From a virus (taxonomy: Duplodnaviria; Caudoviricetes): a stretch of 64,000 bases of DNA. Numbering within the stretch: position 1 is the first letter of the stretch; each line of letters starts with the position of its first letter. This document shows positions 6,588 to 51,714 of this stretch, piece after piece. Location of the stretch: the IMG/VR virus record IMGVR_UViG_3300042885_001472. The stretch is one strand, 5' to 3'. The position numbers and the translations under genes are program-made. The notes under the pieces were generated by a model. That model made no database searches. It had not been told where the DNA came from and saw nothing but the letters and a program-made list of their open reading frames with translations.

Positions 6588-6682
6588 TTTGTTTTTTTTT
6601 AAGTTATTATTATAATTAATTCAAATCTATGAATAATAATTGATAAAATCAAATTTTTTAAGTTAAAATGATATTTATTATT

Positions 6683-7633
6683 ATGAAGAATTTAAAAAAT
6701 AGGATTAAAAACCAATTATTAGAACATAGTAGGGGTAAATTATTTAAAGTTATTGAGTCTAAATATTATTATTCCATGTATCAAGATGTATTCTTTGTTG
6801 GTACTTATGACGAGTGTGTAGATTTTATCGTAAATGGAAGAAGACATGATCTGGAAATACAACCTTTTGGGGGTGGTAATGATGAAAATGAAATTGTTGA
6901 TGAAGGTGTAAGTAAAATAGATGATAAAATTGAGTTTGATTATGAAACCAATGATCAGGATAGTAATATCAATACCAGGTTAGGTATCACATCTAAGAAT
7001 TTTAAATTTAAACCAAGATTTAAGACTTTACCTAAGAGTGGTGTAAAAGTTTTATCTGTATATCAAAAAACTTCTAATAAAGAAACTACTGAAATAATTA
7101 AAGACCTTAAACGTAGTGAAGAGGAAAGGGGTGTAAGTGAAAATGATTACAATTCATTTTTAACTCGTACAGCGATATTTTATGGTAGGGTATTAAAAGA
7201 TATGGAAATTGATACCATATTCTTAATGGAATCAAAATCATCTTTATCAAAAGATCTTACAGTTAAAATTAAATCAATATTACCAAATACAACGATTAAG
7301 TTATTAGATAACTCAATAGTTAAAGATATTAAGAATATTAAATTAAATAGAGAAGGGGCTAAACTATCTGATTACGAATATGAATTATTAGGTAACATAC
7401 ATAATAATGTAAAAACCAAGGGTGAATTTAGTCTTAAGAAAATCCATCCAAAACATAGAGCTTTATTTACCGATTGGATTAAAATTAATGAAGATTCTAT
7501 TAGAGATGTCACCGATAAGAATATAATTGTTGTTGATGATTATATAACCAGTGGTGTAACATTGGATGAAGTGTGTACACAACTTTTAAAGTTATCACCA
7601 AAATCTATATTATGTTTAACCATTATTAAATAA
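6683..7633 (+). CDS. phosphoribosyltransferase-domain protein
   Basis: PRPP loop IIVVDDYITSGVTL at C-terminus; start placed at ATG 6683 after ATATTTAT. Confidence 0.7.
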   Translation: MKNLKNRIKNQLLEHSRGKLFKVIESKYYYSMYQDVFFVGTYDECVDFIVNGRRHDLEIQPFGGGNDENEIVDEGVSKIDDKIEFDYETNDQDSNINTRLGITSKNFKFKPRFKTLPKSGVKVLSVYQKTSNKETTEIIKDLKRSEEERGVSENDYNSFLTRTAIFYGRVLKDMEIDTIFLMESKSSLSKDLTVKIKSILPNTTIKLLDNSIVKDIKNIKLNREGAKLSDYEYELLGNIHNNVKTKGEFSLKKIHPKHRALFTDWIKINEDSIRDVTDKNIIVVDDYITSGVTLDEVCTQLLKLSPKSILCLTIIK

Positions 7634-7671: not shown

Positions 7672-8574
7672 ATGGAAGTGATTATGAATAACATTAAAAA
7701 AGATATTATAAGTTGGTGGAGTGGAGGAATTACCTCACCGGTGGCTTGTAAGTTATCAATAGATATGTTCGGTATTGATCGGGTTAGAATTATAATGATT
7801 GATACTCAGAACGAACATCCGGATACATACCGGTTTAAAACTGATTGTGAGAAATGGTATGGTTTACCAATTGAAATTATTACTGGTATTGGTGAAAAAT
7901 ATGGTAATATTTTTGATGTCTGGAGAAAACATAAGTCATTGAATACAGCCACTGGTGCGATATGTTCTACAAATTTAAAAAGATTAGTTCGTGAAAAATG
8001 GGAGAAAGATAATCCTAATTATACACATCAAGTATTTGGGTTTGAATTTGAAAAGAAAGAATTTAATAGAGCTTTATCAATGTCATTAAATCATGGTGAA
8101 AGGGTTAAAGCGATCTACCCTTTATTAATGTTTGGGTATGATAAAAAACAATGTCTTAAGATTGTTGATGACGCTAAGATTGAAGTTCCAAAAATGTATC
8201 AGTTAGGTTTCCAAAATAATAATTGTTTTTCAACTGGATGTGTTCAGGGTGGGATTGGTTACTGGTAAAAGATGTGTAGAGACTTCCCAGATAAATTTGA
8301 GGTTATGGCTAATTTAGAACATGAATTAACAGAATTAAAGGGTGAACCGGTAACAATGTTAAAAGATCAATCTAATTTAGCTAAAGAATCGTCTAAAATA
8401 GATAAAAAATCAAACTTAGTTTTTCTTAAAAAACATCCATTATATCCAAACCATAAATGTTTAGATGATATGTCCCAAAGGAGTGTTGAACCTCTTTTTG
8501 AGTGTAATGGGATGTGTGGTATAAATGATATGAATGAAAGAACCAGTACTGAAAAAGAGATCAATTACGATTAA
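7672..8574 (+). pseudogene. PAPS-reductase-like (PP-loop) protein interrupted by in-frame TAA at 8266-8268
   Basis: SWWSGGITS, NNNC..GCVQGGIGYW*KMCRDFPDKF; the two track ORFs are in the same frame. Confidence 0.7.
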
Positions 8575-8910: not shown

Positions 8911-9060
8911 ATGACAGTAAAACAATTAATTGATAACTTATCAAATATTGATGGTGAAAAGATTAGTCGTAAAAATATTCAAGCACATTCTTTTAAAGAA
9001 ATACGAAAATCTCACAATATTCACAAAATGCTCGTGGTGGGTTCTTTTAATTGGTTATAA
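8911..9060 (+). CDS. 49-aa ORF ending in the first attC core; eroded distal cassette or junction
   Basis: Manual translation MTVKQLIDNLSN..GSFNWL*; stop lies in TTATAAC. Confidence 0.35.
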   Translation: MTVKQLIDNLSNIDGEKISRKNIQAHSFKEIRKSHNIHKMLVVGSFNWL

Positions 9061-9110
9061 CGTTTTGCGGCTAATAGACGTTTCTTAATGTTTATTAGGT
9101 GCGGTTATAA
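9055..9110. repeat. attC-like site 1 (56 bp)
   Basis: TTATAAC gttttgcgg ctaata..tattag gtgcg GTTATAA. Confidence 0.85.
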
Positions 9111-9167
9111 GCTGACGGTTACGAATGTTACTATGAAAAATTAATTTAAAAAAAAACAAATATAAAA

Positions 9168-9446
9168 ATGGAAAATAAGACAGCATTAATTGCAAAAAGA
9201 GATGAGTTACAAAAAGAAATTTATCTTTTAAATACTAAAATAAAAGAGCTTAATAAGATTGAATTATTTGAAAAATACAATGTTAAAATGGGGGACGAAA
9301 TTACTATTGTAGGTAAAAAAGGAGTAATAACAAATAACTGTGGTAGTTATCTTTACTATACCGCTTATAAAAAAGATGGGACTTTAGGCACTAGAGAAAG
9401 TAGGATTTGGAGTTTTGACACGTTTACAAAAACCGTTTCAAAGTAG
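9168..9446 (+). CDS. cassette 1 hypothetical protein
   Basis: ORF between sites 1 and 2. Confidence 0.75.
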   Translation: MENKTALIAKRDELQKEIYLLNTKIKELNKIELFEKYNVKMGDEITIVGKKGVITNNCGSYLYYTAYKKDGTLGTRESRIWSFDTFTKTVSK

Positions 9447-9457
9447 CTACCGTTTGC

Positions 9458-9554
9458 TTATAACGTTTTGCAGCTTTAAGAAGTGGCTGCCTAAAAATTA
9501 CTTCATTTGACAAACAATGCTTATGGCAGACATTTTTTAAAGGTGCTGTTATAA
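9458..9554. repeat. attC-like site 2 (97 bp)
   Basis: TTATAAC gttttgcag ctttaa..ttaaag gtgct GTTATAA. Confidence 0.85.
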
Positions 9555-9574
9555 GCTGATAAAAATTACGGATT

Positions 9575-9772
9575 ATGACCGCAAAAGAATTTGTTTTAGA
9601 AAAATGTCCAAAGGCAAGAGCTGAAAGGCAAGTGTCAGGTAGAATTAAAGGTATGCAGACTGTATATTATTTAATTCGTGAACGAGGGCAAACAATGTAT
9701 ATGGCAGAAGGCAAGAGCGAAAGTAACGCTTGGGTAAATGCTAAAAAGTTTCTATTGGAACGTGAACAGTAG
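9575..9772 (+). CDS. cassette 2 hypothetical protein
   Basis: ORF between sites 2 and 3. Confidence 0.75.
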   Translation: MTAKEFVLEKCPKARAERQVSGRIKGMQTVYYLIRERGQTMYMAEGKSESNAWVNAKKFLLEREQ

Positions 9773-9786
9773 TAATTTTTATTTCC

Positions 9787-9871
9787 CTATAACGGACGGA
9801 GCTTGTGGCTTAAATAAACCAAACAATGCTATTTTAACACTTCCGCTTTTTGCCACAAGGTTGTGTTAGTT
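9787..9871. repeat. attC-like site 3 (85 bp)
   Basis: CTATAAC ggacggag cttgtggc..gccacaag gttgt GTTAGTT; nearly identical to site 10. Confidence 0.85.
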
Positions 9872-9901
9872 TTTAGGCACTTAATTAAACATAAAAAGAA
9901 A

Positions 9902-10276
9902 ATGGAAAAAATAGAAATAGAATTATCAGAAAGCAAATTAAACACATTAAAAAGTGTAGAATATTTAAAAATAAATGATTTAGAGTTTGTTTCAAAAAAT
10001 AAATGCGCTCAATTATGTGCTGATTTTGCAATTGAACATCAAAAAAAGTCACTTAGGAAAACAGCATTAATCGGCTTAATCATAATGTTTTCATCATTTA
10101 TTTTTGCAATAATTGAAACGTTATACTTTGGCTCAAATTGGTATCCACAATCAAAAAATGAAGTAGTGTGTGATTATATAGCTTTATACACTTGCGGATT
10201 AGGCACTTCTTTATTTGGTTTTTGTATCATTAAGCAATTCATAATTGAAGTGTCTGAGAATATTAAGAGTGCTTGA
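9902..10276 (+). CDS. cassette 3 membrane protein (2 TM)
   Basis: ATG 9902 preferred over the track GTG at 9863, which overlaps the attC core. Confidence 0.7.
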   Translation: MEKIEIELSESKLNTLKSVEYLKINDLEFVSKNKCAQLCADFAIEHQKKSLRKTALIGLIIMFSSFIFAIIETLYFGSNWYPQSKNEVVCDYIALYTCGLGTSLFGFCIIKQFIIEVSENIKSA

Positions 10277-10363
10277 AACTAACGGACGAAGCTAACATAC
10301 GTTTGTAAACCACACCTAGCATTTAACCATTATAACTCAAATGTTTGTTAGGTTGTGTTACCA
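10277..10363. repeat. attC-like site 4 (87 bp)
   Basis: AACTAAC ggacgaag ctaaca..tgttag gttgt GTTACCA. Confidence 0.85.
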
Positions 10364-10415
10364 CACGTTTTGAATACTTAAATTAAATATCAATAGAAAA
10401 TTAAAATAAAAAATT

Positions 10416-10670
10416 ATGACACCAAAAGAGAAAGCAACCGAATTATATCAAAAATATTACAATAACTATGGTTACTATGGAATACCAGTAGATGCCGTTA
10501 AACATAGTAAAGAATGTGCTAATATTTGTATTGATGAAATACTGAAATCACAACCAATTGAACCAAATAATAGTAAACCCTTTGGAGTTAAAATACAATC
10601 TGTTAGGCAAAACTTTACTGATGCTGATGAATATTGGAAATTAGTTAAACAAGAACTTGAACTTCTTTAG
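10416..10670 (+). CDS. cassette 4 phage-type hypothetical protein (MTPKEKA.EL)
   Basis: ORF between sites 4 and 5. Confidence 0.75.
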   Translation: MTPKEKATELYQKYYNNYGYYGIPVDAVKHSKECANICIDEILKSQPIEPNNSKPFGVKIQSVRQNFTDADEYWKLVKQELELL

Positions 10671-10690
10671 AATATCCAAAACAAAATGAG

Positions 10691-10821
10691 TGGTAACGTT
10701 TTGCAGCCTTATTTAGTGCGGGCTTAAAAGCACTATGTTAATTTAAAACTGAATATTATGAATAGTAAAAATGTTTCCAACGAAGCCGAAAAACCCGCAT
10801 TGAATAAGGGTGCTGTTAGTG
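10691..10821. repeat. attC-like site 5 (131 bp)
   Basis: TGGTAAC gttttgcag ccttatt..aataagg gtgct GTTAGTG. Confidence 0.85.
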
Positions 10822-10985
10822 GCAGTTATTGTGTGAGAAAACACGATTTGTTTGCTGTAACATATCAAAAAGTAGCTGAAAATTTAAGTAAAGATGAAGC
10901 TGAAAGTATTAAAAACGAAATGCAAACAAAGTCAATAGAGGAGTGTGGTTGCCCTGTACCTGTATTTTTTGTAAGTGAAGTATAA
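10758..10985 (+). CDS. cassette 5 protein starting inside attC 5
   Basis: MNSKNVSNEAEKPALNKGAVS is encoded by the attC. Confidence 0.7.
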   Translation: MNSKNVSNEAEKPALNKGAVSGSYCVRKHDLFAVTYQKVAENLSKDEAESIKNEMQTKSIEECGCPVPVFFVSEV

Positions 10986-10989
10986 TTAC

Positions 10990-11069
10990 CACTAACGGCT
11001 GGATATTTAATCTGTTTGGCTGTCTGAGCAATTATGTAATAGCCAAATTGATTGAATATTTTGTTAGTT
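10990..11069. repeat. attC-like site 6 (80 bp)
   Basis: CACTAAC ggctggatatttaatc..gattgaatatttt GTTAGTT. Confidence 0.8.
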
Positions 11070-11107
11070 TACAGTAAAATAAACCAAATAAATTAAAATA
11101 AAAAAAT

Positions 11108-11497
11108 ATGAACAGAGAAATTAAGTTTAGAGCATGGAATGGTAAGGAAATGCGATGCGATGTTAATATAAATGATGGCAAACCTGTAAGGAAAGGCTAT
11201 CAATGGTTTAATGAATCAAATGATATTCATAACTCAGAGCCTATGCAACTTATAGGGTTAAAGGACAAAAATGGAGTTGAAATTTATGAAGGTGATATTT
11301 TAGAAGATAAAAATAAAAACTTTATGTATAATGTATTTAGGGTTGCAGGAGGTTTTGCAATAAATACGCATCAAAATGACTTTAATAGAAAAACTCCATT
11401 TTACACATCTTTTGATATGCAAACATCTTCATATATTAATGGAAATTGTGAGGTAAAAGGTAATATTTATCAACCTATATTAACATTAGAAAAGTAA
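11108..11497 (+). CDS. cassette 6 YopX family protein
   Basis: REIKFRAW..MQLIGLKDKNGVEIYEGDI..EVKGNIY. Confidence 0.9.
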   Translation: MNREIKFRAWNGKEMRCDVNINDGKPVRKGYQWFNESNDIHNSEPMQLIGLKDKNGVEIYEGDILEDKNKNFMYNVFRVAGGFAINTHQNDFNRKTPFYTSFDMQTSSYINGNCEVKGNIYQPILTLEK

Positions 11498-11520
11498 ACA
11501 TCAATGGTTTATTTTATTGA

Positions 11521-11600
11521 AACTAACGGCATCAAGCTAAAAGCTGACCGCCTTTATAAGCGGTTTGGTGATGGCGGTTTGATTTTAGGTTGGGTTATAA
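11521..11600. repeat. attC-like site 7 (80 bp)
   Basis: AACTAAC ggcatcaag ctaaaa..ttttag gttgg GTTATAA. Confidence 0.85.
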
Positions 11601-11651
11601 GCTGACGGTTACGAATGTTACTATGGAAAATTAATTTAAAAAAACATACAG

Positions 11652-11996
11652 ATGGAAAACAAAGGAGAATATTTGGGTTTATGTAATTTAAGCTCTTGTA
11701 CAACACACAAACCAGCAACTTATTATAATTACGGTACATCAAAATACTATTGTAAAGAATGTGCTGAAAGATTAAATTCTGATGAATATAATCAACGTGA
11801 TGCAATGCGTATGTTTGGACATGATTTATGTATTGAGGAATCAGTAAGACCTAAACCATTAAATGAAATTATTGAAAAACAAAATTACCTTCAATTTACT
11901 GAACCTTACATTATGGAATTAGCTTCTGATTTTAGACCAACAGTTAGACATAGCCCTTATATTAAATCTGAACCAAGTCAACAAAATATAATTTAG
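11652..11996 (+). CDS. cassette 7 Cys-containing hypothetical protein
   Basis: CNLSSC..YCKEC..HDLC. Confidence 0.7.
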   Translation: MENKGEYLGLCNLSSCTTHKPATYYNYGTSKYYCKECAERLNSDEYNQRDAMRMFGHDLCIEESVRPKPLNEIIEKQNYLQFTEPYIMELASDFRPTVRHSPYIKSEPSQQNII

Positions 11997-12087
11997 CTAA
12001 TCCAGACGAAGGATATGCTGATTTTGATAATGCACAAAAAGAGTGTAATAAGCTAAACAAAAATGTTTCAAAGTAGCTACCGTTTGC

Positions 12088-12141
12088 TTATAACGTCTGA
12101 TGATAAACAATCGTTTTAATGTTGTTTATCATTTGTTATAT
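12088..12141. repeat. attC-like site 8 (54 bp)
   Basis: TTATAAC gtctg atgataaacaa..ttgtttatcat tt GTTATAT. Confidence 0.8.
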
Positions 12142-12164
12142 TTAGTAAAAAATAATTTATACAT

Positions 12165-12344
12165 ATGAAATACCAAGCACTTAAAAAAGAATATTTTGCA
12201 GTTTATGAAAAAGAACCAAGACATCAGAATGAAAAAAATGGTGTAATACTTTCACCATATAATACGAAAGAAGATGCTGAAAAAGCGAGAGTTAAATATG
12301 GTTATGGTGATGATAATTATTATGTAGATAAACTCATAAATTAA
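12165..12344 (+). CDS. cassette 8 hypothetical protein (59 aa)
   Basis: Manual translation MKYQALKKEYFAVYEKE..YVDKLIN*. Confidence 0.65.
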   Translation: MKYQALKKEYFAVYEKEPRHQNEKNGVILSPYNTKEDAEKARVKYGYGDDNYYVDKLIN

Positions 12345-12354
12345 TTTTTATTGA

Positions 12355-12410
12355 ATATAACGTTTTGCAGCTAATAGCCGTTTCTTAATGGATATTAGGT
12401 GCGGTTATAT
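12355..12410. repeat. attC-like site 9 (56 bp)
   Basis: ATATAAC gttttgcag ctaata..tattag gtgcg GTTATAT; near copy of site 1. Confidence 0.85.
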
Positions 12411-12466
12411 TTAGTTGCCTAGAATAGCAATGCGGAGTGATAATTTAATAATTAAAAATAAAACAA

Positions 12467-12868
12467 ATGAAAACATTAACCATAAAACAACCGTGGGCTA
12501 GTTTGATTGCAAACGGAATAAAGGACATTGAAAATAGAACTTGGAAAACAAATCATAGAGGTAAAATTTATATTCATGCTGCTCAAATAAATTCAAAGGA
12601 TTGGGAGGACTTAATAAATTTACCCGATAATCAAAGAAATGAATTTTTTGAATTTGTTAAACACAAAATACTTAACACAAAATCGAATAGTAGCATTATT
12701 GGCGAAGTTGAAATAGTAGATTGTGTTCAAGATAGTAAATCAATTTGGGCTTTACCAAACCATTATCATTGGGTTTTAAAAAATGCTATAATTTACGATG
12801 AGCCTATTTTAAACGTAAAAGGTAAATTATCATTGTGGGAGTACACAGGTGCGGTGGGAGGCAATTGA
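12467..12868 (+). CDS. cassette 9 ASCH domain protein
   Basis: LTIKQPWASLIANGIKDIENRTW..RGKIYIHAA..VKGKLSLW. Confidence 0.9.
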   Translation: MKTLTIKQPWASLIANGIKDIENRTWKTNHRGKIYIHAAQINSKDWEDLINLPDNQRNEFFEFVKHKILNTKSNSSIIGEVEIVDCVQDSKSIWALPNHYHWVLKNAIIYDEPILNVKGKLSLWEYTGAVGGN

Positions 12869-12953
12869 ATATAACGGACGGAGCTTGTGGCTGAAATAAA
12901 CCTAACAATGCTATTTTAACACTTCCGCTTTTTGCCACAAGGTTGTGTTAGTT
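12869..12953. repeat. attC-like site 10 (85 bp)
   Basis: ATATAAC ggacggag cttgtggc..gccacaag gttgt GTTAGTT. Confidence 0.85.
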
Positions 12954-12987
12954 TACAGTAAAATAAACCAAATTAAAATAAAAAAAT

Positions 12988-13377
12988 ATGAATAGAAAAA
13001 TTAAATTTAGAGCTTGGGATAGTTTTTATAAAATGATGATACATTCATCTTATAAAGATTTTTCGGTATTATCAGAATTTTTTAAAGAATTAGAAGATAG
13101 AAAAGACAATGATTGCAAAATAATGCAATTTACAGGATTAAAGGATAAAAATGGAGTTGATATTTATGAGGGCGACATTATTAAATGCTCATTAGCTACT
13201 GAACCCGAAGATAAAGGATTTATTTGTTTATGGCGAAATTTTAAATGGGAATTTTGTAATGTTAGATTTAAAGATGACGAATCATTTAATTTAACCGACT
13301 TTGATTATTTAACTGTAAAAACAGAAGTAATTGGAAACATATATGAGAATGCGGATATGTTAACATCAGAAAAGTAA
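12988..13377 (+). CDS. cassette 10 YopX family protein
   Basis: RKIKFRAWD..MQFTGLKDKNGVDIYEGDI..EVIGNIYEN. Confidence 0.9.
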   Translation: MNRKIKFRAWDSFYKMMIHSSYKDFSVLSEFFKELEDRKDNDCKIMQFTGLKDKNGVDIYEGDIIKCSLATEPEDKGFICLWRNFKWEFCNVRFKDDESFNLTDFDYLTVKTEVIGNIYENADMLTSEK

Positions 13378-13400
13378 ACATCAATGGTTTATTTTATTGA

Positions 13401-13479
13401 AACTAACGGTTGGATATTGGCTTAGTTTGGCTTTCTAACCACTTATATAATGCCAAATTGAGCCAATATTTTGTTAGTA
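13401..13479. repeat. attC-like site 11 (79 bp)
   Basis: AACTAAC ggttggatattggct..agccaatatttt GTTAGTA. Confidence 0.85.
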
Positions 13480-13561
13480 TTTCGTTTACTTTTACTTTTT
13501 TAGGGTAGCATTAGAAAATTAAACTATCTGATTTATAGCACTTTACAAAAATAATGTAAAA

Positions 13562-13597
13562 TATATTTGTGTCCATCAAATACATTATGTACATTTA
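13562..13597 (+). promoter_or_regulatory. cassette 11 internal promoter
   Basis: TTTG 13566-13569, 20 nt, TACATTTA 13590-13597; TATATTTG at 13562 also fits. Confidence 0.5.
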
Positions 13598-13629
13598 CAC
13601 TCAGATAACAACAACTAAAAAATAAGATT

Positions 13630-13785
13630 ATGAAATTATTAAATTTAACAGTAAGAAACATTAAAGGAGAATTAGCAACTGGATGTTATAGCCACACTAA
13701 AAATAAGGTTAAATTTTACGTTGTTGTTTGGAATAATACTCAATTTTTTGGTACTGATTTAGAAACAATTTTTAACACTTTATAA
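13630..13785 (+). CDS. cassette 11 ORF a (51 aa)
   Basis: Manual translation MKLLNLTVRNIKGELATG..TIFNTL*. Confidence 0.55.
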   Translation: MKLLNLTVRNIKGELATGCYSHTKNKVKFYVVVWNNTQFFGTDLETIFNTL

Positions 13786-13786
13786 T

Positions 13787-14011
13787 ATGAAGATTAAACA
13801 AGAAAAAATAGAAATAAAAGTAAATATATTTTTTTTAGAAGAAAATGAAGATGTTTTATCTGAGATAAATAAAGCAATTAATAAAAAAACATTTACAGTA
13901 ATTGTAAAAAATAAAGTTTATCATGTTGCTGGACATGGAATGTTAAAAGATTTAGATAATTTAAAAGATGCTTTATTAGATATTAAGTTTTTAACAAATG
14001 CCTTATTATGA
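13787..14011 (+). CDS. cassette 11 ORF b, hypothetical
   Basis: ORF track. Confidence 0.65.
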   Translation: MKIKQEKIEIKVNIFFLEENEDVLSEINKAINKKTFTVIVKNKVYHVAGHGMLKDLDNLKDALLDIKFLTNALL

Positions 14012-14250
14012 AAACTCCAATATCACAAACAACAGCTAAAACAAACGCTAAAAAATACAATGATTATTTCACAGCTAATGAACAAACTTATAAAACAATG
14101 AAAAGAAGTAAACGCATAGAATTAACGGAAAGCACTATTAAGTATTTAGCAAAAAAAGCTATTGACGAAGGGACAAGTTTTAAACCTTATGTCGAACAAA
14201 TTTTGGAAAGTTTAGCCAATACACAGGTGGGCAGGAAAAAAGAAAAGTAA
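14008..14250 (+). CDS. cassette 11 ORF c, ribbon-helix-helix-like regulator
   Basis: KRIELTESTIKYLAKKAIDEGTSFKPYVEQILE. Confidence 0.55.
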   Translation: MKTPISQTTAKTNAKKYNDYFTANEQTYKTMKRSKRIELTESTIKYLAKKAIDEGTSFKPYVEQILESLANTQVGRKKEK

Positions 14251-14255
14251 ATGGA

Positions 14256-14349
14256 TACTAACAGTCGGCAATATGAAACGGTTGCCTTATAAGACGTTTC
14301 AAAATATAACTCAGTTTTCTGGCAACTGTTTTTATATTGCTTGTTATAG
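14256..14349. repeat. attC-like site 12 (94 bp)
   Basis: TACTAAC agtcg gcaatat..atattgc tt GTTATAG with inner gttgcc/ggcaac stem. Confidence 0.85.
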
Positions 14350-14367
14350 CCAGTTAATTTTAACGAT

Positions 14368-14598
14368 ATGTACAAAATAGTAAAAGAAATTCACACTTAT
14401 AAACAAGGTAGGATAAAATTTAGAATACACGAAAGATTTTTATGGAGATGGATACCAAGTGAAAGTTTTTCTGAATATGAAACCTATGAATTGGCAGAAA
14501 AAGCAATTATAGAAAAACTGAACGGCAAACATGGTGGTATTGTTGAATTGAAAAATGATGTTTATAAATTTTATCCGTATTCATTACCGATGCCTTAA
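14368..14598 (+). CDS. cassette 12 hypothetical protein
   Basis: ORF between sites. Confidence 0.75.
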   Translation: MYKIVKEIHTYKQGRIKFRIHERFLWRWIPSESFSEYETYELAEKAIIEKLNGKHGGIVELKNDVYKFYPYSLPMP

Positions 14599-14602
14599 TT
14601 GG

Positions 14603-14678
14603 CTATAACGGTTTGCAGCTAATAGACGGGCGGTTGAAACATAGTAGATGTCCGCCTGTTTATTAGGTGCTGTTATAG
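14603..14678. repeat. attC-like site 13 (76 bp)
   Basis: CTATAAC ggtttgcag ctaata..tattag gtgct GTTATAG. Confidence 0.85.
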
Positions 14679-14731
14679 GTAGGTTGTAACGAATGTTTAA
14701 TTAATACACAATATAAAAAAATAATAATAAT

Positions 14732-14914
14732 ATGATAGAAATAATAATTTGGCTAATTTTTTTCCCATTAGCAACAACAATAAATAGATACTTTTTAGAT
14801 AGAAATAAAAAGGATAGAAATGAGGAAGTAACATCTAAAGAAGTAAAAGACAAATTAGATTTTTTTGAGCTTGCCGTTTTTGTGATAGTGCTTATAATTT
14901 TAATCAAACGCTAA
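14732..14914 (+). CDS. cassette 13 small membrane protein
   Basis: two hydrophobic segments. Confidence 0.65.
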   Translation: MIEIIIWLIFFPLATTINRYFLDRNKKDRNEEVTSKEVKDKLDFFELAVFVIVLIILIKR

Positions 14915-14942
14915 AATGTTTCTAAATGATACCACAACTTAC

Positions 14943-15023
14943 CTATAACGTTAAGAAGCCTTGCTTAGTTTGGCTTTTTAACACACATAGCACTTGCCAA
15001 ATTGAGCAAGGGTTGTGTTAGTA
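14943..15023. repeat. attC-like site 14 (81 bp)
   Basis: CTATAAC gttaagaag ccttgct..agcaagg gttgt GTTAGTA. Confidence 0.85.
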
Positions 15024-15068
15024 TTAGGTGGCTTAAAAGTGAATATTAATTTTAAATAAAAATAAAAA

Positions 15069-15278
15069 ATGGAATACGGAATATTAAAAGTAGGTTGCAA
15101 AGTAAAATATACTGATGAAGCTAAAAAAGAATTGCCAACAGTTTTTAAAGATATAACAAAGGATAAAGTAAAAACTGTAAAATGGATTAGTAAAAATCAA
15201 GAGAACTGTGATTTTGTGGATGGTGACAGTTGTGATATTTACTGGTTAGAACTCGTAGAAGATTCTAAAGCCACTTGA
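15069..15278 (+). CDS. cassette 14 hypothetical protein
   Basis: ORF between sites; stop lies in the terminal inverted repeat. Confidence 0.75.
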   Translation: MEYGILKVGCKVKYTDEAKKELPTVFKDITKDKVKTVKWISKNQENCDFVDGDSCDIYWLELVEDSKAT

Positions 15279-15367
15279 TACTAACGGTATCAAGCTAAAA
15301 GCAGTTGCTAAACCAACCTAATATATTTGAGCGTTAACTCGCAAATTGATTTTAGGTTGTGTTAGGA
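15279..15367. repeat. attC-like site 15 (89 bp)
   Basis: TACTAAC ggtatcaag ctaaaa..ttttag gttgt GTTAGGA. Confidence 0.85.
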
Positions 15368-15394
15368 TTAGTTAAATTTTAAAAATAAAAAATT

Positions 15395-15589
15395 ATGTAT
15401 ATAACAAAAAGCGGTAAAGTTGTAATGTATAATAATGATGGTTACGATTATACTGAAGTTTTTAATAGTGATAGAAATTGGGAAGATAAATCAGGTATGT
15501 ACTTAAACTACTGTAAAAATTGCGAAAAACATTTTTTTGGTAATAAGTATAGAATAATATGCAAAAAATGTAGTAACGGTAAAATTTAA
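15395..15589 (+). CDS. cassette 15 zinc-ribbon protein
   Basis: CKNC..CKKC. Confidence 0.7.
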   Translation: MYITKSGKVVMYNNDGYDYTEVFNSDRNWEDKSGMYLNYCKNCEKHFFGNKYRIICKKCSNGKI

Positions 15590-15593
15590 TTGA

Positions 15594-15653
15594 ACCTAAC
15601 GGTTTGCAGCTAATAGACGTTTTTCTTAAAATGGATATTAGGTGCTGTTATAG
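15594..15653. repeat. attC-like site 16 (60 bp)
   Basis: ACCTAAC ggtttgcag ctaata..tattag gtgct GTTATAG. Confidence 0.85.
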
Positions 15654-15696
15654 GTAGGTTGTAACGAATGTTTAATTAATACACAATATAAAAAAT

Positions 15697-16044
15697 ATGG
15701 AAATAAGCGAATTAAGATTAGGTAATTATGTAATGTATATTGATAATTATATATTGCCAGTTACTACCGATACATTTTATTGGATATCCGAATGTGTTAG
15801 AACTGAAGATGATTACAAACCAATAGAATTAACAGAAGATATACTTTTTAAATGCGGGTTTAAATTGGCTATTGATGAAAATGTTTATACGTTAGATGAT
15901 ACAATTGAATTAACGCAAACTGATTATGGAAATAGTTTTTATTTTATGGGCAATTTTATAAAATCAGATATAAAATATTTACACCAATTACAGAACTTGT
16001 ATTTTGCAATAACTGATATTGAGTTAAATGTATCAAAAATATAA
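15697..16044 (+). CDS. cassette 16 'ELRxGN' phage family protein
   Basis: ELRLGNY..KPIELTE..HQLQNLYF; paralogue of 55436-56606 genes. Confidence 0.8.
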   Translation: MEISELRLGNYVMYIDNYILPVTTDTFYWISECVRTEDDYKPIELTEDILFKCGFKLAIDENVYTLDDTIELTQTDYGNSFYFMGNFIKSDIKYLHQLQNLYFAITDIELNVSKI

Positions 16045-16064
16045 ATAACAAAGCACCAACTTAC

Positions 16065-16140
16065 TTATAACGTTTTGCAGCTAATGGCTGGCGGCTCTAA
16101 GCGGTTATATAATGCCGCTTGACATTAGGTGCTGTTATGT
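16065..16140. repeat. attC-like site 17 (76 bp)
   Basis: TTATAAC gttttgcag ctaatg..cattag gtgct GTTATGT. Confidence 0.85.
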
Positions 16141-16201
16141 TGGTGTGTCGGAATGTGTGTGAGGCAGTTTTATTTTATTAATTTTTAAAAAAGCGAAGGA
16201 A

Positions 16202-16384
16202 ATGAATATACCAAATAGTTACGCAAAAGCAATAGTAGCCGACATGAAGGCTAAAATAAAAAAACATGAAAAGACTTGTTATTACAATGATAATTTATGT
16301 GAAGGTAAAGTTAGTAGAGTAAATTCACATCATGTTTTTTTATGTGAAAAATGCTTGAATGAATACAATAATATAAAAGATTAA
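16202..16384 (+). CDS. cassette 17 ORF a, Cys-rich
   Basis: ORF track. Confidence 0.65.
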   Translation: MNIPNSYAKAIVADMKAKIKKHEKTCYYNDNLCEGKVSRVNSHHVFLCEKCLNEYNNIKD

Positions 16385-16387
16385 ACT

Positions 16388-16660
16388 ATGAAAAAAGCAG
16401 AAGAAATACTAAAACAAAACTGCATAAAGCAACAATGGGACAAACAAATACTAACAGATGACTTTACATTGGAAGTTACTATACCATCAATGGAAGAATA
16501 CGCTAATCAATTCAAAGTAAAAATGTGGGGTTGCTATGCTTGTGGTAAATTACTTAGAATTTATGCTACACAAAAAGAAGCGGATGAAGCAAGAACAAGA
16601 TGGAGTACCGAATGTATTGTTATAGTAAAGGAAGTAGTTGTTGGTGACGGGGGTGCGTAG
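16388..16660 (+). CDS. cassette 17 ORF b, hypothetical
   Basis: ORF track. Confidence 0.7.
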   Translation: MKKAEEILKQNCIKQQWDKQILTDDFTLEVTIPSMEEYANQFKVKMWGCYACGKLLRIYATQKEADEARTRWSTECIVIVKEVVVGDGGA

Positions 16661-16689
16661 GCTTTTAAAAATTAATAAAATAAAATTGA

Positions 16690-17008
16690 ACATAACGGTT
16701 GCGGATATATGAATGTAAAAAATTAATAATCAGAACGATGATAACAACACAAAATTTAACAGAATTAGGTTTTAGTGAGATACTTAATGTATTCACTGGA
16801 AAACAAGTTTGGGTTTTAGGTGAAGAAGATAGAGAGATATGTGGAAACCCTTGTAGATTACCAATACTTTATTACAACATAGAAACCCAAACTTGTAAAG
16901 TAGTTAGGGGTGAATTTTGTGTTGTTCAACGAGAATGTAAATCAGAAGAAGAAATTAGAAAGTTTGTAGAATCTATTAATTTTTTATTTCATATATCCGT
17001 TGTTATAA
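16690..17008. repeat. attC-like site 18 (319 bp, mostly coding)
   Basis: ACATAAC ggtt gcggatatatgaa..ttcatatatccgt t GTTATAA. Confidence 0.75.
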
Positions 17009-17097
17009 ATAGTAAAAAACCTATCGAACAAGTATTATCCGAAGCGATTAAAGAATCTTATGATAAGATAAAAGACAATTTAGAACCACCACTTTAA
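16738..17097 (+). CDS. cassette 18 protein encoded mainly inside attC 18
   Basis: ATG 16738; reads through GTTATAA 17002 as HISVVINSKK. Confidence 0.7.
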   Translation: MITTQNLTELGFSEILNVFTGKQVWVLGEEDREICGNPCRLPILYYNIETQTCKVVRGEFCVVQRECKSEEEIRKFVESINFLFHISVVINSKKPIEQVLSEAIKESYDKIKDNLEPPL

Positions 17098-17110
17098 GGT
17101 TTTTTATTGT

Positions 17111-17187
17111 TTATAACGGTTTGCAGCTAATAAATCGGGCGATGGAAATATATGTAATTTCCGCCTGTTTATTAGCTGCTGTTATAG
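17111..17187. repeat. attC-like site 19 (77 bp)
   Basis: TTATAAC ggtttgcagctaata..tattagctgct GTTATAG. Confidence 0.85.
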
Positions 17188-17231
17188 GTAGGTTGTAACG
17201 AATGTTTAATTGAAACTTTAATATAAAAAAT

Positions 17232-17510
17232 ATGGAAAATATAAGTTTAAAAGATAAAGTAAGCGATATACTTGAATATTGGGAAAATGATTATGATGAA
17301 ACTTGTGATGCTACCGCTATTTCAAAAATAGAAGCATTGATAAAAGAGGAAAATCAAAAATTGAAAAAAGAAAATGATATTTATAAATCTTTTATATGTC
17401 ATGTAAAAAATAGTTTTAAAATGATTAATGATGATATAAGTGAAATAGATGTTTATAGAAGTTTAAGGACAAGAGCTGATGATATTTTAAATAACAATTT
17501 TCCTTTTTAA
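17232..17510 (+). CDS. cassette 19 hypothetical coiled-coil protein
   Basis: ORF between sites. Confidence 0.75.
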   Translation: MENISLKDKVSDILEYWENDYDETCDATAISKIEALIKEENQKLKKENDIYKSFICHVKNSFKMINDDISEIDVYRSLRTRADDILNNNFPF

Positions 17511-17548
17511 TTAACACAAAAAATGTTTCTAAATGATACACAACTTAC

Positions 17549-17657
17549 CTATAACGCTTTGCAGCTTTGAGCCGTTTACCAAATATTAATAACAAAAAAA
17601 TAAATAACGAATATGAATAACAGAAAAATAAAAAATGGCTTAAAGGTGTTGTTAGTG
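17549..17657. repeat. attC-like site 20 (109 bp)
   Basis: CTATAAC gctttgcag ctttgagcc..ggcttaaag gtgtt GTTAGTG. Confidence 0.85.
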
Positions 17658-17843
17658 GCTGTTTTATTTGTAAAATGTACTACAAATAAATTGATTATTA
17701 CTGAATGTCAAAGAGCTAATTTAACAAGCCTTTTTATTCAAAAAATGGAAATTGGAAAAGTTTATAAAATCAATTTATGTGATGAGTATTTTAACTACTC
17801 ATTTGATGGCGAAAAATATACTTTGGAACGATATAAAAAATAG
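17613..17843 (+). CDS. cassette 20 putative lipoprotein starting inside attC 20
   Basis: MNNRKIKNGLKVLLVAVLFVKC signal-peptide-like N-terminus. Confidence 0.6.
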   Translation: MNNRKIKNGLKVLLVAVLFVKCTTNKLIITECQRANLTSLFIQKMEIGKVYKINLCDEYFNYSFDGEKYTLERYKK

Positions 17844-17844
17844 C

Positions 17845-17929
17845 CACTAACGTTCCTCAAATATGAGTAGTAAATTTTTCTATTGAGATTTGGAAAATCA
17901 AAATTTATTTCTTATATTTGTTGTTATAT
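17845..17929. repeat. attC-like site 21 (85 bp)
   Basis: CACTAAC gttcct caaatatgag..cttatatttg tt GTTATAT. Confidence 0.8.
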
Positions 17930-17968
17930 TTAGTTTTCAGTTTGTTTTACCTTAAAAAAATATAAATT

Positions 17969-18214
17969 ATGATTAAAAAGAATGAAGAACAATTTGATAG
18001 TGGTGGTATAATACTTAAACACACTTTTCTTTTAGGTTTCGATGAACTAAGAATACCAACCGAAGATATTACAGAAGATATGATAGATACATATGTAAAA
18101 GAAAAATCATCAGAATTTGAATGGGAATTTAAGTTTTTTCTGATGATGAAATTAGGTTATATTGGGAAAGAAGGTGATATTTGGATAAAAGAACCAAAAC
18201 AAACTGAAAATTGA
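17969..18214 (+). CDS. cassette 21 hypothetical protein
   Basis: C-terminal KQTEN* is encoded by the cassette terminal inverted repeat. Confidence 0.75.
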   Translation: MIKKNEEQFDSGGIILKHTFLLGFDELRIPTEDITEDMIDTYVKEKSSEFEWEFKFFLMMKLGYIGKEGDIWIKEPKQTEN

Positions 18215-18344
18215 ATATAACGTTTTGTATTGGCGAAGAAGCGGAATTTTACCACTGAAGTTGATACGAAGCACCAATGCTTATTTACCTACAAATGTTC
18301 ATACGAAGCACTAAAACCGCTTTTTTGCCAATACTTTGTTAGTG
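18215..18344. repeat. attC-like site 22 (130 bp)
   Basis: ATATAAC gtttt gtattggc gaagaagcgg..ccgcttttttgccaatac ttt GTTAGTG. Confidence 0.85.
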
Positions 18345-18412
18345 GCTGATGCGGATTTTTAGCACTCATTTTCAGTAAGTTAGAAAATATTTTCAAAATA
18401 AAAGAAAATAAA

Positions 18413-18444
18413 TTTGGTTTGTATTGTTTTTGTATATACATTTG
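18413..18444 (+). promoter_or_regulatory. cassette 22 promoter facing the integrase
   Basis: TTTG 18413-18416, 20 nt, TACATTTG 18437-18444 (Bacteroidetes consensus). Confidence 0.7.
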
Positions 18445-18470
18445 CGTTACAATAATTAAATAAAAACAAA

Positions 18471-18749
18471 ATGACAAACGAACAATTAAACGCTATGAGC
18501 GTATCAGATTTAAGAGAATTAAATTCAAGAGTAATAGCTTATATTAAGTTTAAAAACTCAATGGCTAGTGGTGAAAACAAATCCAAAATATCAGTAGGTA
18601 TGACGGTAACGATTAAAACCAATAATCCTCTATTATTAGATTCTGTTTTTACTTTGGAAAAGATAAATAAAAAAAATGCTGTTTGTAGAGATATTAAAAC
18701 TCAACAAACTTGGAATGTTTTAATTTGTAACGTTATAGAAAAACCATAA
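18471..18749 (+). CDS. cassette 22 ORF a, hypothetical
   Basis: ORF track. Confidence 0.75.
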   Translation: MTNEQLNAMSVSDLRELNSRVIAYIKFKNSMASGENKSKISVGMTVTIKTNNPLLLDSVFTLEKINKKNAVCRDIKTQQTWNVLICNVIEKP

Positions 18750-18916
18750 TGGAAAAGAAAAAACGAGATGTAAGCCTTCCAAAAAGGTTTAATTCAGAAG
18801 ATGTAAATAAATGGCAAGAACAAGCTAATTTAACAACTGGTGGTAATCTTACCTTATGGATGGAAAACACATTGAATAACGCTGTAAAGAAGCAAAATGT
18901 CAAATCGAAGCAGTAA
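18749..18916 (+). CDS. cassette 22 ORF b (55 aa), RHH/CopG-like
   Basis: Manual translation MEKKKRDVSLPKRFNSEDVNKWQEQAN..GNLTLWMENTLN; TAATG coupling. Confidence 0.55.
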   Translation: MEKKKRDVSLPKRFNSEDVNKWQEQANLTTGGNLTLWMENTLNNAVKKQNVKSKQ

Positions 18917-18928
18917 CGTAGCATTTGC

Positions 18929-18960
18929 CACTAACTATTATATATAAACAAGTATAGTCT
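18929..18960 (-). other. attI-like site
   Basis: Lone CACTAAC core with no partner arm, about 46 bp upstream of the integrase; bottom strand GTTTATATATAATA-GTTAGTG. Confidence 0.6.
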
Positions 18961-18981
18961 AAACCCTTTAATAACAATACT

Positions 18982-19782
18982 TTGAACCAAAAAATTATAA
19001 AGATTTGTGAAGAAAAGTTTATATATTTAAACTATTCTCCAAGAACAAAGGATAACTATTTAATCCACATAAAATACTTTCTAAAATCTTTAGGGGATAA
19101 ACAAATCATCCATTGTAACTCTAAAGACTTCCAGTCTTATTTGGATAATTATAACTTCACATCTGTTTCACAACAAAACCAGATTATTAACTCAATCAGA
19201 TTCTTATATAAATTTGGGTTAAATAAAAAATACGATAAAGTTTCATTCAAACGACCAAAATCTGAAAAGAAGTTACCCCAGGTAATTGATCATTATCATA
19301 TAAAAGAGTCGTTATCTAAAATTAATAATCTTAAACACAAAACAATCTTATCTATAACATATTCAGTTGGGTTAAGAGTTTCTGAGGTTATAAATCTAAA
19401 AATAGAAGATATTGATTCAAGGAGAATGATCATCCATATTAAAAACGCTAAAGGTAGGAAAGATAGGATAGTTCCACTTTCTCAAAACATATTAGATTTA
19501 TTGAGGGTTTACTATAAAGAATATAGACCGGTGGAATACTTATTTAATGGTCAAAATAATCTACAATATACTTCTACTAGTTGTAATCAAATTGTTAAAA
19601 AACATTTAGGTGAAAAATATCATATCCACCAGTTAAGACATAGTTGTGCGACAAATCTCCTTGAAAATGGTACTGATTTAAAATTAATACAAAAAATATT
19701 AGGTCATTCTTCAGTAAAAACGACAGAAATTTATACACACGTTTCAAATCAAATGTTGAGTAAAATAAATCTACCAATTTAG
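18982..19782 (+). CDS. tyrosine recombinase (integron-integrase-like, no IntI insertion)
   Basis: TTG start; YSPRTKDNY SAM-like N-terminus; GLRVSE (R), AKGRKDR (K), HQLRH, LGHSS, TEIYT catalytic set. Confidence 0.92.
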   Translation: MNQKIIKICEEKFIYLNYSPRTKDNYLIHIKYFLKSLGDKQIIHCNSKDFQSYLDNYNFTSVSQQNQIINSIRFLYKFGLNKKYDKVSFKRPKSEKKLPQVIDHYHIKESLSKINNLKHKTILSITYSVGLRVSEVINLKIEDIDSRRMIIHIKNAKGRKDRIVPLSQNILDLLRVYYKEYRPVEYLFNGQNNLQYTSTSCNQIVKKHLGEKYHIHQLRHSCATNLLENGTDLKLIQKILGHSSVKTTEIYTHVSNQMLSKINLPI

Positions 19783-20968: not shown

Positions 20969-21286
20969 ATGTCTAATACATATTACAATCCCTGGTACTA
21001 TTATATTGATAAAACTTTAATTAAAAAGAAAAAACCTTGTGTACCTGGGAATCAAATACATTTACACAATCTTAATGGTTGTTATACCGTACACCATGTG
21101 GAAGTTGGTGGGTTCTATATTCTTAAGGATAGAGTTTATATTAAAAAACCTTGGAGTGAATTTAAATGTCTTAAGGGTTATGGTGAGAGTGTTGAATCAA
21201 AAATGAAAAAAAATATTAAATCATTATTACGTTATAATGATGAGATAAGAACTAATCTTAATTGTATGTTAAATTTAATAAGATAA
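20969..21286 (+). CDS. hypothetical protein
   Basis: ORF track. Confidence 0.6.
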   Translation: MSNTYYNPWYYYIDKTLIKKKKPCVPGNQIHLHNLNGCYTVHHVEVGGFYILKDRVYIKKPWSEFKCLKGYGESVESKMKKNIKSLLRYNDEIRTNLNCMLNLIR

Positions 21287-51640: not shown

Positions 51641-51642
51641 GT

Positions 51643-51714
51643 ATTCAGGGTGAGATTCGAACTCACATCTTGCTTTGACTCACAAAGCGTATTCTACCAT
51701 TGAACTAGCTGATT
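51643..51714 (-). tRNA. tRNA-like RNA with non-canonical anticodon loop
   Basis: TCAG/CTGA acceptor, GTTCAATGGTAGAAT D-arm, GCTTT/AAAGC stem with GTGAGTC loop, GTGAG-TTCGAAT-CTCAC T-arm. Confidence 0.55.

Follow-up and report, generated by a model that had tools for sequence, protein, structure and literature searches.

A hairpin-bounded gene cassette array beside a Xer-like tyrosine recombinase in a large phage: a candidate integron-like platform for gene capture

In this paper we looked at a stretch of 64,000 nucleotides (nt) of viral DNA, here called the window (Duplodnaviria; Caudoviricetes; IMG/VR record IMGVR_UViG_3300042885_001472), in which a long array of small gene cassettes lies next to the gene of a tyrosine recombinase. 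The array occupies positions 9058–18935 of the + strand and consists of 22 hairpin sites, 22 units and 26 open reading frames (ORFs), and its end is a core sequence close to the recombinase gene. This core opens an attI-like junction (18932–18981, +), which is followed by the gene of a Xer-like tyrosine recombinase of 266 amino acids (18982–19782, +). An initial annotation, made from the sequence alone, had described 22 attC-like palindromes, 22 units, a lone core and a tyrosine recombinase, and all of these were located again in our analysis. We suggest that the locus serves for site-specific gene capture and functions as an integron does, but with a different enzyme, a reading to which we assign a probability of about three in four.

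The array and its hairpin sites

All 22 imperfect hairpin sites were located at 9058–18341, on the + strand only, and each of them runs from TAAC to GTTA. Measured from core to core the sites are 48–125 nt long, plus a single site of 313 nt; the sizes of 54–131 and 319 bp that were given earlier are the same lengths with three flanking bases added on each side. The palindromes open with (N)TAAC-G and close with T-GTTA(N). Between the sites lie units with one to three co-oriented ORFs each, 26 in total and 51–133 amino acids in length, and all sizeable ORFs between 9058 and 18341 are found on the + strand. The array is placed inside a phage genome, with phage-type genes on both sides. The window encodes a DNA methyltransferase, a protein with an endolysin-type domain and an amidase, and it is AT-rich throughout (25–34% GC).

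When folded with DNA parameters, 22 of the 22 sites form a hairpin that is closed by the TAAC/GTTA pairs. In every one of them the + strand fold is more stable than the − strand fold, because many of the pairs are G.T; for the first site the values are −10.3 kcal/mol (+) and −2.3 kcal/mol (−). The unpaired spacer is asymmetric, with about 4–6 nt on the 5' arm only, and most of the 22 sites have a single G.G mismatch three pairs into the inner stem. An extrahelical G or T of the classical integron type was not identified in the sites; it is the G.G mismatch, together with the G.T wobbles, that favours the + strand fold.

Alignment of 18 sites shows that 84% of the cells are paired, a value that was reached by none of 500 shuffles and that drops to 37–50% when the partner is slid, and both-sided changes are found at 13 of the 19 pairs. 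A covariance model of sequence and structure (R1) was built from these 18 sites and the window was scanned with it, with filters off and on both strands of all 64 kb. The scan gave 21 matches at E ≤ 0.17, all on the + strand and all within 9054–18345, three of which are sites that were held out of the training. Further + strand matches in the window are only two, both weak, at 36.6–37.0 kb (E 0.2–0.8), and one training site is also matched weakly on the − strand (E 0.63). The 313-nt site 18 exceeds the length range of R1; its arms are 12 bp long. The bare motif TAAC-N(30–60)-GTTA is not enriched in the window, with 85 matches against 72 expected, so the signal is one of structure plus position and not of the motif. 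The matches of the covariance model are thus array-specific in the window, and they recur in related viral contigs.

A larger alignment of 109 sites from 27 sources gives a similar picture. TAAC/GTTA is identical in 108–109 of these 109, there is a G.T wobble after the core in 103, and compensatory changes are seen in 11 of the 11 inner-stem pairs. The paired cells reach 91.9%, compared to 71.5% in shuffles and 30–56% with the partner slid, in an alignment that was fitted to the model and therefore leans towards structure. These sites are 47–188 nt long, plus one of 313. With its flanks, the consensus reads ATT-N4-(A/C)-TAAC-G, then the body of the hairpin, and then T-GTTA-(T/G); 99% of the sites have the T at position −7.

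Stem-loops between genes can also be terminators or carry promoters. Here terminator-like matches are at chance level (4 compared to 3.4 expected) and the sites are without T tails, and sigma-70 promoter-like matches are at chance level as well (72 compared to 78.6 expected), in a scan that leaves Bacteroidota-type promoters outside its scope. With both signals at chance level, the terminator or promoter reading of the sites was rejected. In a scan against Rfam only a tRNA was matched, and none of the curated RNA families covers the sites. An invariant core of 4 nt with covarying stems fits recognition by a protein better than it fits a terminator.

Following the array towards the recombinase, all on the + strand, site 1 lies at 9058–9107 (R1 score 53.4 bits), site 2 at 9461–9551 (66.1 bits), site 3 at 9790–9868 (47.2 bits; same class as site 10, repeat D5) and site 4 at 10280–10360 (46.8 bits). 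Site 5 (10694–10818; 34.2 bits) is outside the training set and an ORF at 10758 starts in its loop. It is followed by site 6 (10993–11066; 64.7 bits), site 7 (11524–11597; 63.9 bits), site 8 (12091–12138; 35.2 bits), which represents the 48-nt class, site 9 (12358–12407; 60.2 bits), site 10 (12872–12950; 49.1 bits), site 11 (13404–13476; 66.0 bits), site 12 (14259–14346; 45.8 bits), site 13 (14606–14675; 57.9 bits), site 14 (14946–15020; 63.7 bits), site 15 (15282–15364; 61.9 bits), site 16 (15597–15650; 56.6 bits) and site 17 (16068–16137; 56.2 bits). Site 18 (16693–17005) holds most of a 119-amino-acid ORF inside its 313-nt loop. The last sites are site 19 (17114–17184; 52.3 bits), site 20 (17552–17654; 48.3 bits), which is outside the training set and has an ORF at 17613 that starts in its loop, site 21 (17848–17926; 44.9 bits) and site 22 (18218–18341), which was also outside the training set (18.0 bits, E 0.17) and folds as well.

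Two of these sites can be described further. The 48-nt hairpin class of site 8 has about 30 copies in other phage contigs, 78–100% identical (mostly ≥88%), in arrays that are otherwise diverged in their cassettes and recombinases. In lake metagenomes the bin with this class has a depth of 30–440, compared to roughly 1–25 in most other bins. This class may be a 'standard' or empty site. The ORF of site 18 has another version in the related viral locus L023, with a different C-terminus that begins 11 nt past the GTTA of the site.

The recombinase and its linkage to the sites

The recombinase gene (18982–19782) has a TTG start and encodes a complete R-K-H-R-H-Y set (R132, K157, H216, R219, H242 and Y251), in a protein with a SAM-like N-terminal domain followed by a tyrosine recombinase catalytic domain. 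The scores against curated models are 180.9 bits for XerA_Arch (cut-off 220), 156 bits for XerD (cut-off 330), 153 bits for XerC (cut-off 335), 150.6 bits in two stretches for the integron integrase model TIGR02249 (cut-off 265) and 92.7 bits for PRK15417 (cut-off 435). The protein is therefore under the curated cut-off of every NCBIfam model, and membership in IntI, XerC, XerD or XerA was rejected on these scores. Its closest solved structures are archaeal XerA (4a8e, E 1e-33; 5hxy), IntI4 (2a3v) and XerD. In the alignment to IntI4 (2a3v), residues 173–214 of the query stand opposite residues 176–265 of IntI4, which indicates that an IntI-specific segment of about 48 residues, the I2 helix, is absent. 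The additional domain that is specific to IntI, which follows the catalytic lysine hairpin and precedes the HxxR box, is thus not found here.

Judged by its sequence, the recombinase is Xer-like and not an IntI. Since the IntI insertion is absent the locus is not a canonical integron, and 'integron-like' is the right word for it while 'integron' is the wrong one. The comparison with integrons in the initial annotation therefore holds for the layout, but it does not extend to a canonical integron, given the missing insertion and the scores below the cut-offs. The protein is also not an equivalog of the Xer enzymes of dimer resolution; its gene is phage-borne and is tied to hairpin arrays rather than to one dif site. 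In metagenomes the recombinase family comprises hundreds of close sequence clusters, on contigs of up to 566 kb. Among 185,579 species-representative bacterial and archaeal genomes there are four relatives, three of them in Bacteroidota records.

The lone TAAC at 18932–18935 has no hairpin and is located 46 nt before the recombinase gene. It is followed by the conserved platform TATTATATATA, which continues up to the start of the recombinase. For a wider comparison an IMG/VR scan was made, which provided 42 viral loci with recombinase relatives of 51–87% identity, on contigs of up to 465 kb. The platform that these loci share consists of TAAC, TA(T/G)(T/A)ATATATA and then about 45–60 bases to the start codon. 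In most of the related loci with upstream sequence, conservation sets in at (N)TAAC and continues rightwards to the gene, with unrelated DNA on the other side, and to the left of the platform TAAC only the cassette-end motif ATT-N4 is common to the loci. Pairs of close relatives show how sharp this boundary is: L012 and L013 are 99.84% identical over 10.85 kb from the platform TAAC and unrelated upstream, and in L024 and L025 the 1,229 nt that start at TAAC are 100% identical, with unrelated DNA in front of them. A single core by the 5' end of the recombinase gene is what characterizes an attI-type site. The boundary between variable and conserved DNA is at the same place, and it can be suggested that new cassettes would be inserted here.

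The linkage between sites and recombinase is strict. Across the 42 loci R1 finds 92 sites at E ≤ 0.01, and all of them are on the strand of the recombinase gene and upstream of it (92 of 92, in 247 kb searched), with none downstream (365 kb searched). Where at least 1 kb of upstream DNA is available, a site is present in 27 of 32 loci. The structure of the sites with its covariation, the strand asymmetry and the exclusive linkage with the recombinase gene are established by these data.

The copy number of the 48-nt class raises the question whether the palindromes could be miniature elements of a selfish kind (derived from REP, MITE or IS200/IS605) whose insertion at TAAC-like targets does not involve the recombinase nearby, with the array as a permissive intergenic landing zone. 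The roughly 30 copies across otherwise unrelated arrays, their abundance in lake metagenomes and the finding that the same ORF can follow differing hairpin bodies would fit such elements. Yet, no HUH or other transposase is associated with the sites, and the sites occur only upstream of the recombinase and co-oriented with it, or in array-like clusters. The cores bound whole ORF-containing units and not hairpins alone, and the lone core of the platform has no hairpin but is still the variable boundary. We consider that such elements are very unlikely to account for the array.

Whole contigs of the relatives are 246–465 kb in size, with a CheckV completeness of 92–98% for four of the five, and they support the earlier description of the carrier as a jumbo phage; two of the five are labelled 'provirus' in IMG/VR. 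These contigs also carry site clusters far from the recombinase gene. In G005, the 246-kb contig of L034, there are two copies of the recombinase, at 77.4 kb (+) and 233.7 kb (−), each beside an array, and clusters of sites free of a recombinase at about 14, 47–50 and 157–159 kb, which indicates that one genome can hold several arrays.

Broken recombinase genes are seen in two giant relatives, at G001:C1:61298–62096 (the contig of L037) and G002:C1:13324–14732 (the contig of L039). In one of these genes a frameshift leaves two half-ORFs, and in the other residues 6–172 and 235–266 lie about 800 nt apart. Arrays with a broken recombinase may be frozen, or may be served by another copy. A version from a cultured Bacteroidota isolate is L044 (Sunxiuqinia indica, NZ_WVEM01000012.1, 1–974), with a 52%-identical recombinase and the same TAAC-TAGTATATATA platform at the extreme start of a 144-kb contig; R1 matches two other contigs of this genome. 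L044 may be a prophage or a chromosomal version.

The initial annotation had named proof of a chimeric assembly with a bacterial chromosome as a possible refutation. A rival reading of this kind is that the assembly is chimeric here, or that an integron of bacterial origin was wrongly joined to the DNA of a phage. It is true that repeat arrays often break or mis-join metagenome assemblies and that many of the related contigs end at the array. Against this, the base composition is uniform across the window, and at least 0.9 of the sampled words of the stretch were found in 10 of 24 metagenome runs (2016–2024). The same architecture is also found within the 246–465 kb viral contigs and in finished genomes of cultured phages, and the recombinase family is nearly absent from the bacterial and archaeal genomes (the four matches given above). 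On the basis of the uniform GC, the recurrence in several runs and the shared architecture the chimera was rejected, and we regard it as having almost no chance of being correct. The first reading, of a large phage with its own cassette array, attC-like hairpins and a dedicated tyrosine recombinase, is supported by about 40 independent viral contigs that share this architecture and by homology that breaks at the cores, as detailed below.

Cassette exchange and content

A search of GenBank phage proteins shows the recombinase family, at 37–40% identity, in isolates of flavobacterial phages, namely the Polaribacter phages Freya_1 to Freya_10 and Leef and the Cellulophaga phage Ingeline. A megablast of the array and 24 kb of its flank against 50,697 GenBank phage records gave no match. 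The Freya genomes are 43,978 to 48,920 bp in size and natural differences between them can be compared directly. In Freya_10 a block of 4,922 bp with 12 small co-oriented ORFs lies directly upstream of the integrase, which is 37.6% identical to the recombinase of the window. Freya_1 is without this block and its flanks are 100% and 99.8% identical to those of Freya_10, and Freya_6 has a different unit of 442 nt at the same position. Every Freya junction has the form ATTG-N4/5-AAC, with the joint directly after AAC: after ATTGTTTACAAC comes cassette DNA in Freya_10 and the platform in Freya_1, and the platform also comes after ATTGTTGCTAAC in Freya_10 and after a sequence that ends in ACTACCAAC in Freya_6. 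AAC is all that these junctions share, which places the exchange inside AAC or directly behind it. Comparison of arrays had been named as a check of the first description, and its outcome is that near-identical phages differ in their cassettes exactly at the recombinase-proximal core.

Exchange units can also be seen within the arrays. The unit at 16691–17119, which includes site 18, is 96.7% identical to L015:5307–5735 and is bounded by two TAAC cores; the homology begins at CATAACG and stops at TTTATAACG. Two further recent shared pairs (99.4% and 100% identical) also span from one TAAC to the next. Among 165 inter-array homology blocks of at least 100 nt, 59% of the left ends are within 8 nt of a TAAC, compared to 8.5% of random positions. 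That homology breaks at the cores, and that cassettes are gained, lost and replaced exactly at the AAC junction in near-identical phages, is therefore established.

The content of the cassettes differs strongly between loci. For only 6 of the 26 ORFs in the cassettes does a relative (E < 1e-5) exist among the 42 loci, where the flanking genes differ too, and cassette ORFs are almost never common to loci, yet the recombinases are 51–87% identical. Pfam matches were obtained for three of the 26 ORFs (YopX twice, and ASCH). In PHROGs three of ten scanned cassette ORFs match phage families without an assigned function, and the ASCH ORF is matched by both databases; ORFs outside the Pfam and PHROG matches are unmatched. 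The YopX and PHROG families are of phage type.

Some smaller features of the cassettes can be added. The two YopX cassettes (11108–11497 and 12988–13377) are paralogues of about 85% identity with different upstream hairpins. Two unrelated cassettes (9429–9466 and 12059–12096) have a common 3' end of 38 nt, 95% identical, that reaches into the TAAC core. Leaders of about 50–60 nt after GTTA are conserved before unrelated ORFs, in one set at 9104–9168 and 11594–11658 and in another at 14672–14733, 15647–15708 and 17181–17242. Within these leaders lies a miniature core pair (TAAC/TTAC-GAAT-GTTA/GTTT), which resembles a degenerate, stemless site; the leaders may act as promoters, provide a context for ribosome binding or be remnants of sites.

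Several observations weigh against a gene-capture platform. The + strand is the mRNA strand, so that hairpins rich in G.U could be selected at the RNA level. Not all shared units fit cores as their ends: several older ones (87–93% identical) begin at GTTA or at an ORF start and not at TAAC, the window at 12133–12362 corresponds to L016:7982–8211 (93.5%) from the upstream GTTA to the next TAAC with differing hairpin bodies on both sides, the two YopX cassettes of the window follow this same pattern, and one recent pair (98.7% identical) runs from an ORF start to GTTA. A single uniform crossover point was sought in the shared units and was not found. Boundaries at GTTA and at ORF starts suggest that hairpin bodies, leaders and ORFs are also reassorted separately, and for this either a further crossover point or homologous exchange between sites that resemble each other would be needed. 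The enzyme itself is another point. The I2 helix, which is found only in IntI enzymes, is credited for the recombination of single-stranded hairpins, and the I2 insertion is held necessary for single-stranded attC recombination (PMC7790495); the phage recombinase is without it. Finally, in the description of the Freya phages the integrase is taken solely to indicate that the phages may be temperate (Bartlau et al.; PMC8776804), and so the published reading of this gene is that of a lysogeny integrase.

Metagenomes from lakes add to these points. DNA of the array occurs in 24 metagenome runs from freshwater or lakes, which belong to 24 different studies (2016–2024). Four lake runs from 2020–2024 show the same local cassette order in pieces of their assemblies, which suggests that the turnover of the array in the population is not fast; these runs consist of short assembly contigs that break at repeats, and rare events are beyond their reach. 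Products of recombination, namely a circle or an empty site, were not observed in the public runs searched, which are likewise contigs that break at repeats. Contig joints in the lake runs were discounted as evidence of excision, with short sides of 21–64 nt that possibly come from related phages.

One explanation that brings many of these points together is that the hairpins are stem-loops with a regulatory function or one at the RNA level (of the terminator, processing or stability type), that the cassettes are shuffled by homologous recombination between these repeats, and that the recombinase is a lysogeny integrase or dimer resolvase with an attP- or dif-like site beside the variable region. 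The folding strand is indeed the sense strand, with many G.U wobble pairs, and modules of hairpin plus leader recur before unrelated ORFs (families D1–D4). The homology blocks that end at GTTA or at ORF starts instead of TAAC would follow from it, as would the temperate reading of the Freya integrase (PMC8776804), and shuffling mediated by PeSL elements, together with mini-circles, is documented in T4-type phages (PMC2839356). Such an explanation is harder to reconcile with the missing T tails and the lack of an excess of terminator-like and sigma-70 promoter-like sites. It is also opposed by the sharp boundary between variable and conserved DNA that the core forms by the recombinase in most related loci with upstream sequence, and by the position of 92 of 92 sites on one side and on one strand relative to the recombinase. 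The Freya junctions have only AAC in common, which is far too short for homologous recombination. Overall we find this explanation unlikely, and a site-specific platform fits the junctions and the linkage better.

The neighbourhood of the array contains several other genes. An ORF of 238 amino acids (21262–21978, +), which lies 1.5 kb past the recombinase gene, has a match to Tad6 of Pfam, a type I Thoeris inhibitor (E 3e-16), which suggests that a counter-defence gene adjoins the cassette platform. Just upstream of the array are genes for a protein with a phosphoribosyltransferase domain (6668–7633, +) and for a PAPS-reductase-like protein (7672–8268, +). Two genes are unusual as phage cargo, a protein with an ice-binding domain (33909–34970, +; Pfam Ice_binding, E 7e-34) and a histidine-kinase-like protein with PAS and HATPase domains (27309–28379, +). 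There is one tRNA gene, at 51642–51714 (−).

A possible mechanism and its relation to known systems

A mechanism that fits the structural data can be proposed. A cassette would be the + strand from just past one AAC core to the next, and would include the body of the hairpin, GTTA, the leader, one to three ORFs and a conserved 3' end of the form ATT-N4-(A/C)-TAAC. The recombinase may bind the folded + strand of a site, with one subunit on the box that is formed by ATT-N4-M-TAAC and GTTA-K-N4-AGT (the TAAC(G)/(T)GTTA arms) and a second subunit on the inner stem that carries the conserved mismatch or wobble. The unpaired spacer of the 5' arm, which lies between the two boxes, could serve as the central region, so that the hairpin would look like a dif-type core site in folded form. 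The enzyme would then cut at or next to AAC, recombination between two sites would excise cassettes as circles, and the circles would be inserted at the attI-like junction 46 nt upstream of the recombinase gene. From the arrangement of sites, junctions and enzyme we infer that recombination takes place, that the recombinase is the enzyme responsible for it, that the substrate is a folded single strand, and where in the core the cleavage falls.

The cassette genes are read towards the recombinase, and their transcription should therefore come from upstream phage promoters or from promoters of their own and not from a promoter of the platform. Motifs of the Bacteroidota-type promoter consensus TAnnTTTG are found before the two multi-gene units, at about 13560 and 18440.

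A wider and more tentative proposal, for which we put the odds somewhat short of even, is that a phage-encoded clade of Xer-like enzymes recombines folded single-stranded hairpins at AAC without I2. Chemistry of the integron type would then have been invented twice, or would predate I2, and giant freshwater phages of Bacteroidota would use several arrays per genome for a community-wide exchange of small accessory genes, possibly for host takeover or anti-defence. If the mechanism is true, it would provide a second, independent model for how hairpin recombination works or arose. Part of the ORFan-rich hypervariable regions in large phages would then be the result of site-specific capture and not of illegitimate recombination, and tools based on IntI would miss a whole class of cassette platforms. 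Freya_1 to Freya_10 and their host offer natural cassette differences in culture, which makes the proposal directly testable.

Integrons are regarded as bacterial and, recently, also archaeal devices, and the phage array resembles them in many respects. In both, small co-oriented units, mostly without apparent promoters, are each bounded by an imperfect hairpin, and the sequence of the hairpin varies while its structure and the AAC...GTT triplets are conserved, as is typical for attC sites. Both have a lone core next to a tyrosine recombinase gene, at its 5' end, and this gene is read in the direction away from the array; viewed from the recombinase, the enzyme gene comes first, then the attI-like site and then the cassettes. 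One strand folds better than the other; the + strand of the phage sites is equivalent to the bottom strand of integrons, with AAC on its 5' arm. The junctions are at AAC and the cassette content differs between close relatives.

The differences are also clear. In the phage the cassette ORFs read towards the attI-like site and the recombinase, so that Pc cannot drive them. The phage enzyme has 266 amino acids and no I2, and it scores higher on archaeal XerA than on TIGR02249. In its sites the spacer is asymmetric, and a G.T wobble and a G.G mismatch are seen where classical extrahelical bases were not identified; a conserved ATT lies 8 nt upstream of the core. In addition, the carrier is a phage, and related phages have several arrays per genome.

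Integron components have been reported in phages before. Qi et al. (2023; PMC9892861) screened 10,705 phage genomes with IntegronFinder and describe three complete canonical integrons in temperate phages and 17 CALINs (small attC clusters without an integrase), some of which are in virulent phages; the carriers include a Polaribacter phage, and sites were tested with the bacterial IntI1. Since these elements were found with IntegronFinder or HattCI, their attC sites are canonical. The common ground is attC-type hairpins in small arrays in phage genomes, including one of a flavobacterial phage. The elements of that study have an IntI of host type or none, in clusters of at least two sites (three in one array), whereas the arrays described here have up to 22 sites and are tied to a non-IntI recombinase that the phage itself encodes, in a large family of phages. 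In our literature search no description was found of a phage-encoded recombinase without I2 that has its own hairpin cassette arrays. The earlier remark that nothing of this kind is described in phages thus applies to the present system, but not to canonical integrons and attC clusters, which have been recorded in phages (PMC9892861).

Xer/dif systems and the pdif modules of Acinetobacter plasmids are a second comparison. The sites of dif and pdif are double-stranded and 28 bp long, each made up of a 6-bp spacer between two 11-bp arms; they are served by the XerC/D of the host, and the gene units of pdif modules have such sites at their borders. The phage array has in common with them an enzyme of the Xer type and gene units with a site at each border. 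It differs in having hairpins of 48–313 nt with covarying stems, all in one orientation, and its own recombinase beside them.

The nearest analogue among phages is the PeSL cassettes of T4-type phages, in which hyperplastic ORFan regions contain stem-loop motifs, with shuffling of modules and mini-circles (Arbiol et al., 2010, PMC2839356; PMC4122927). As in the phage array, regions of small ORFan genes are separated by conserved stem-loops. A PeSL is a promoter plus a terminator, and its cassettes move by homologous recombination without a dedicated recombinase (PMC2839356; PMC4122927). The phage array, in contrast, is without a terminator or sigma-70 signal and has an invariant core of only 3–4 nt, a strictly linked tyrosine recombinase and an attI-like junction.

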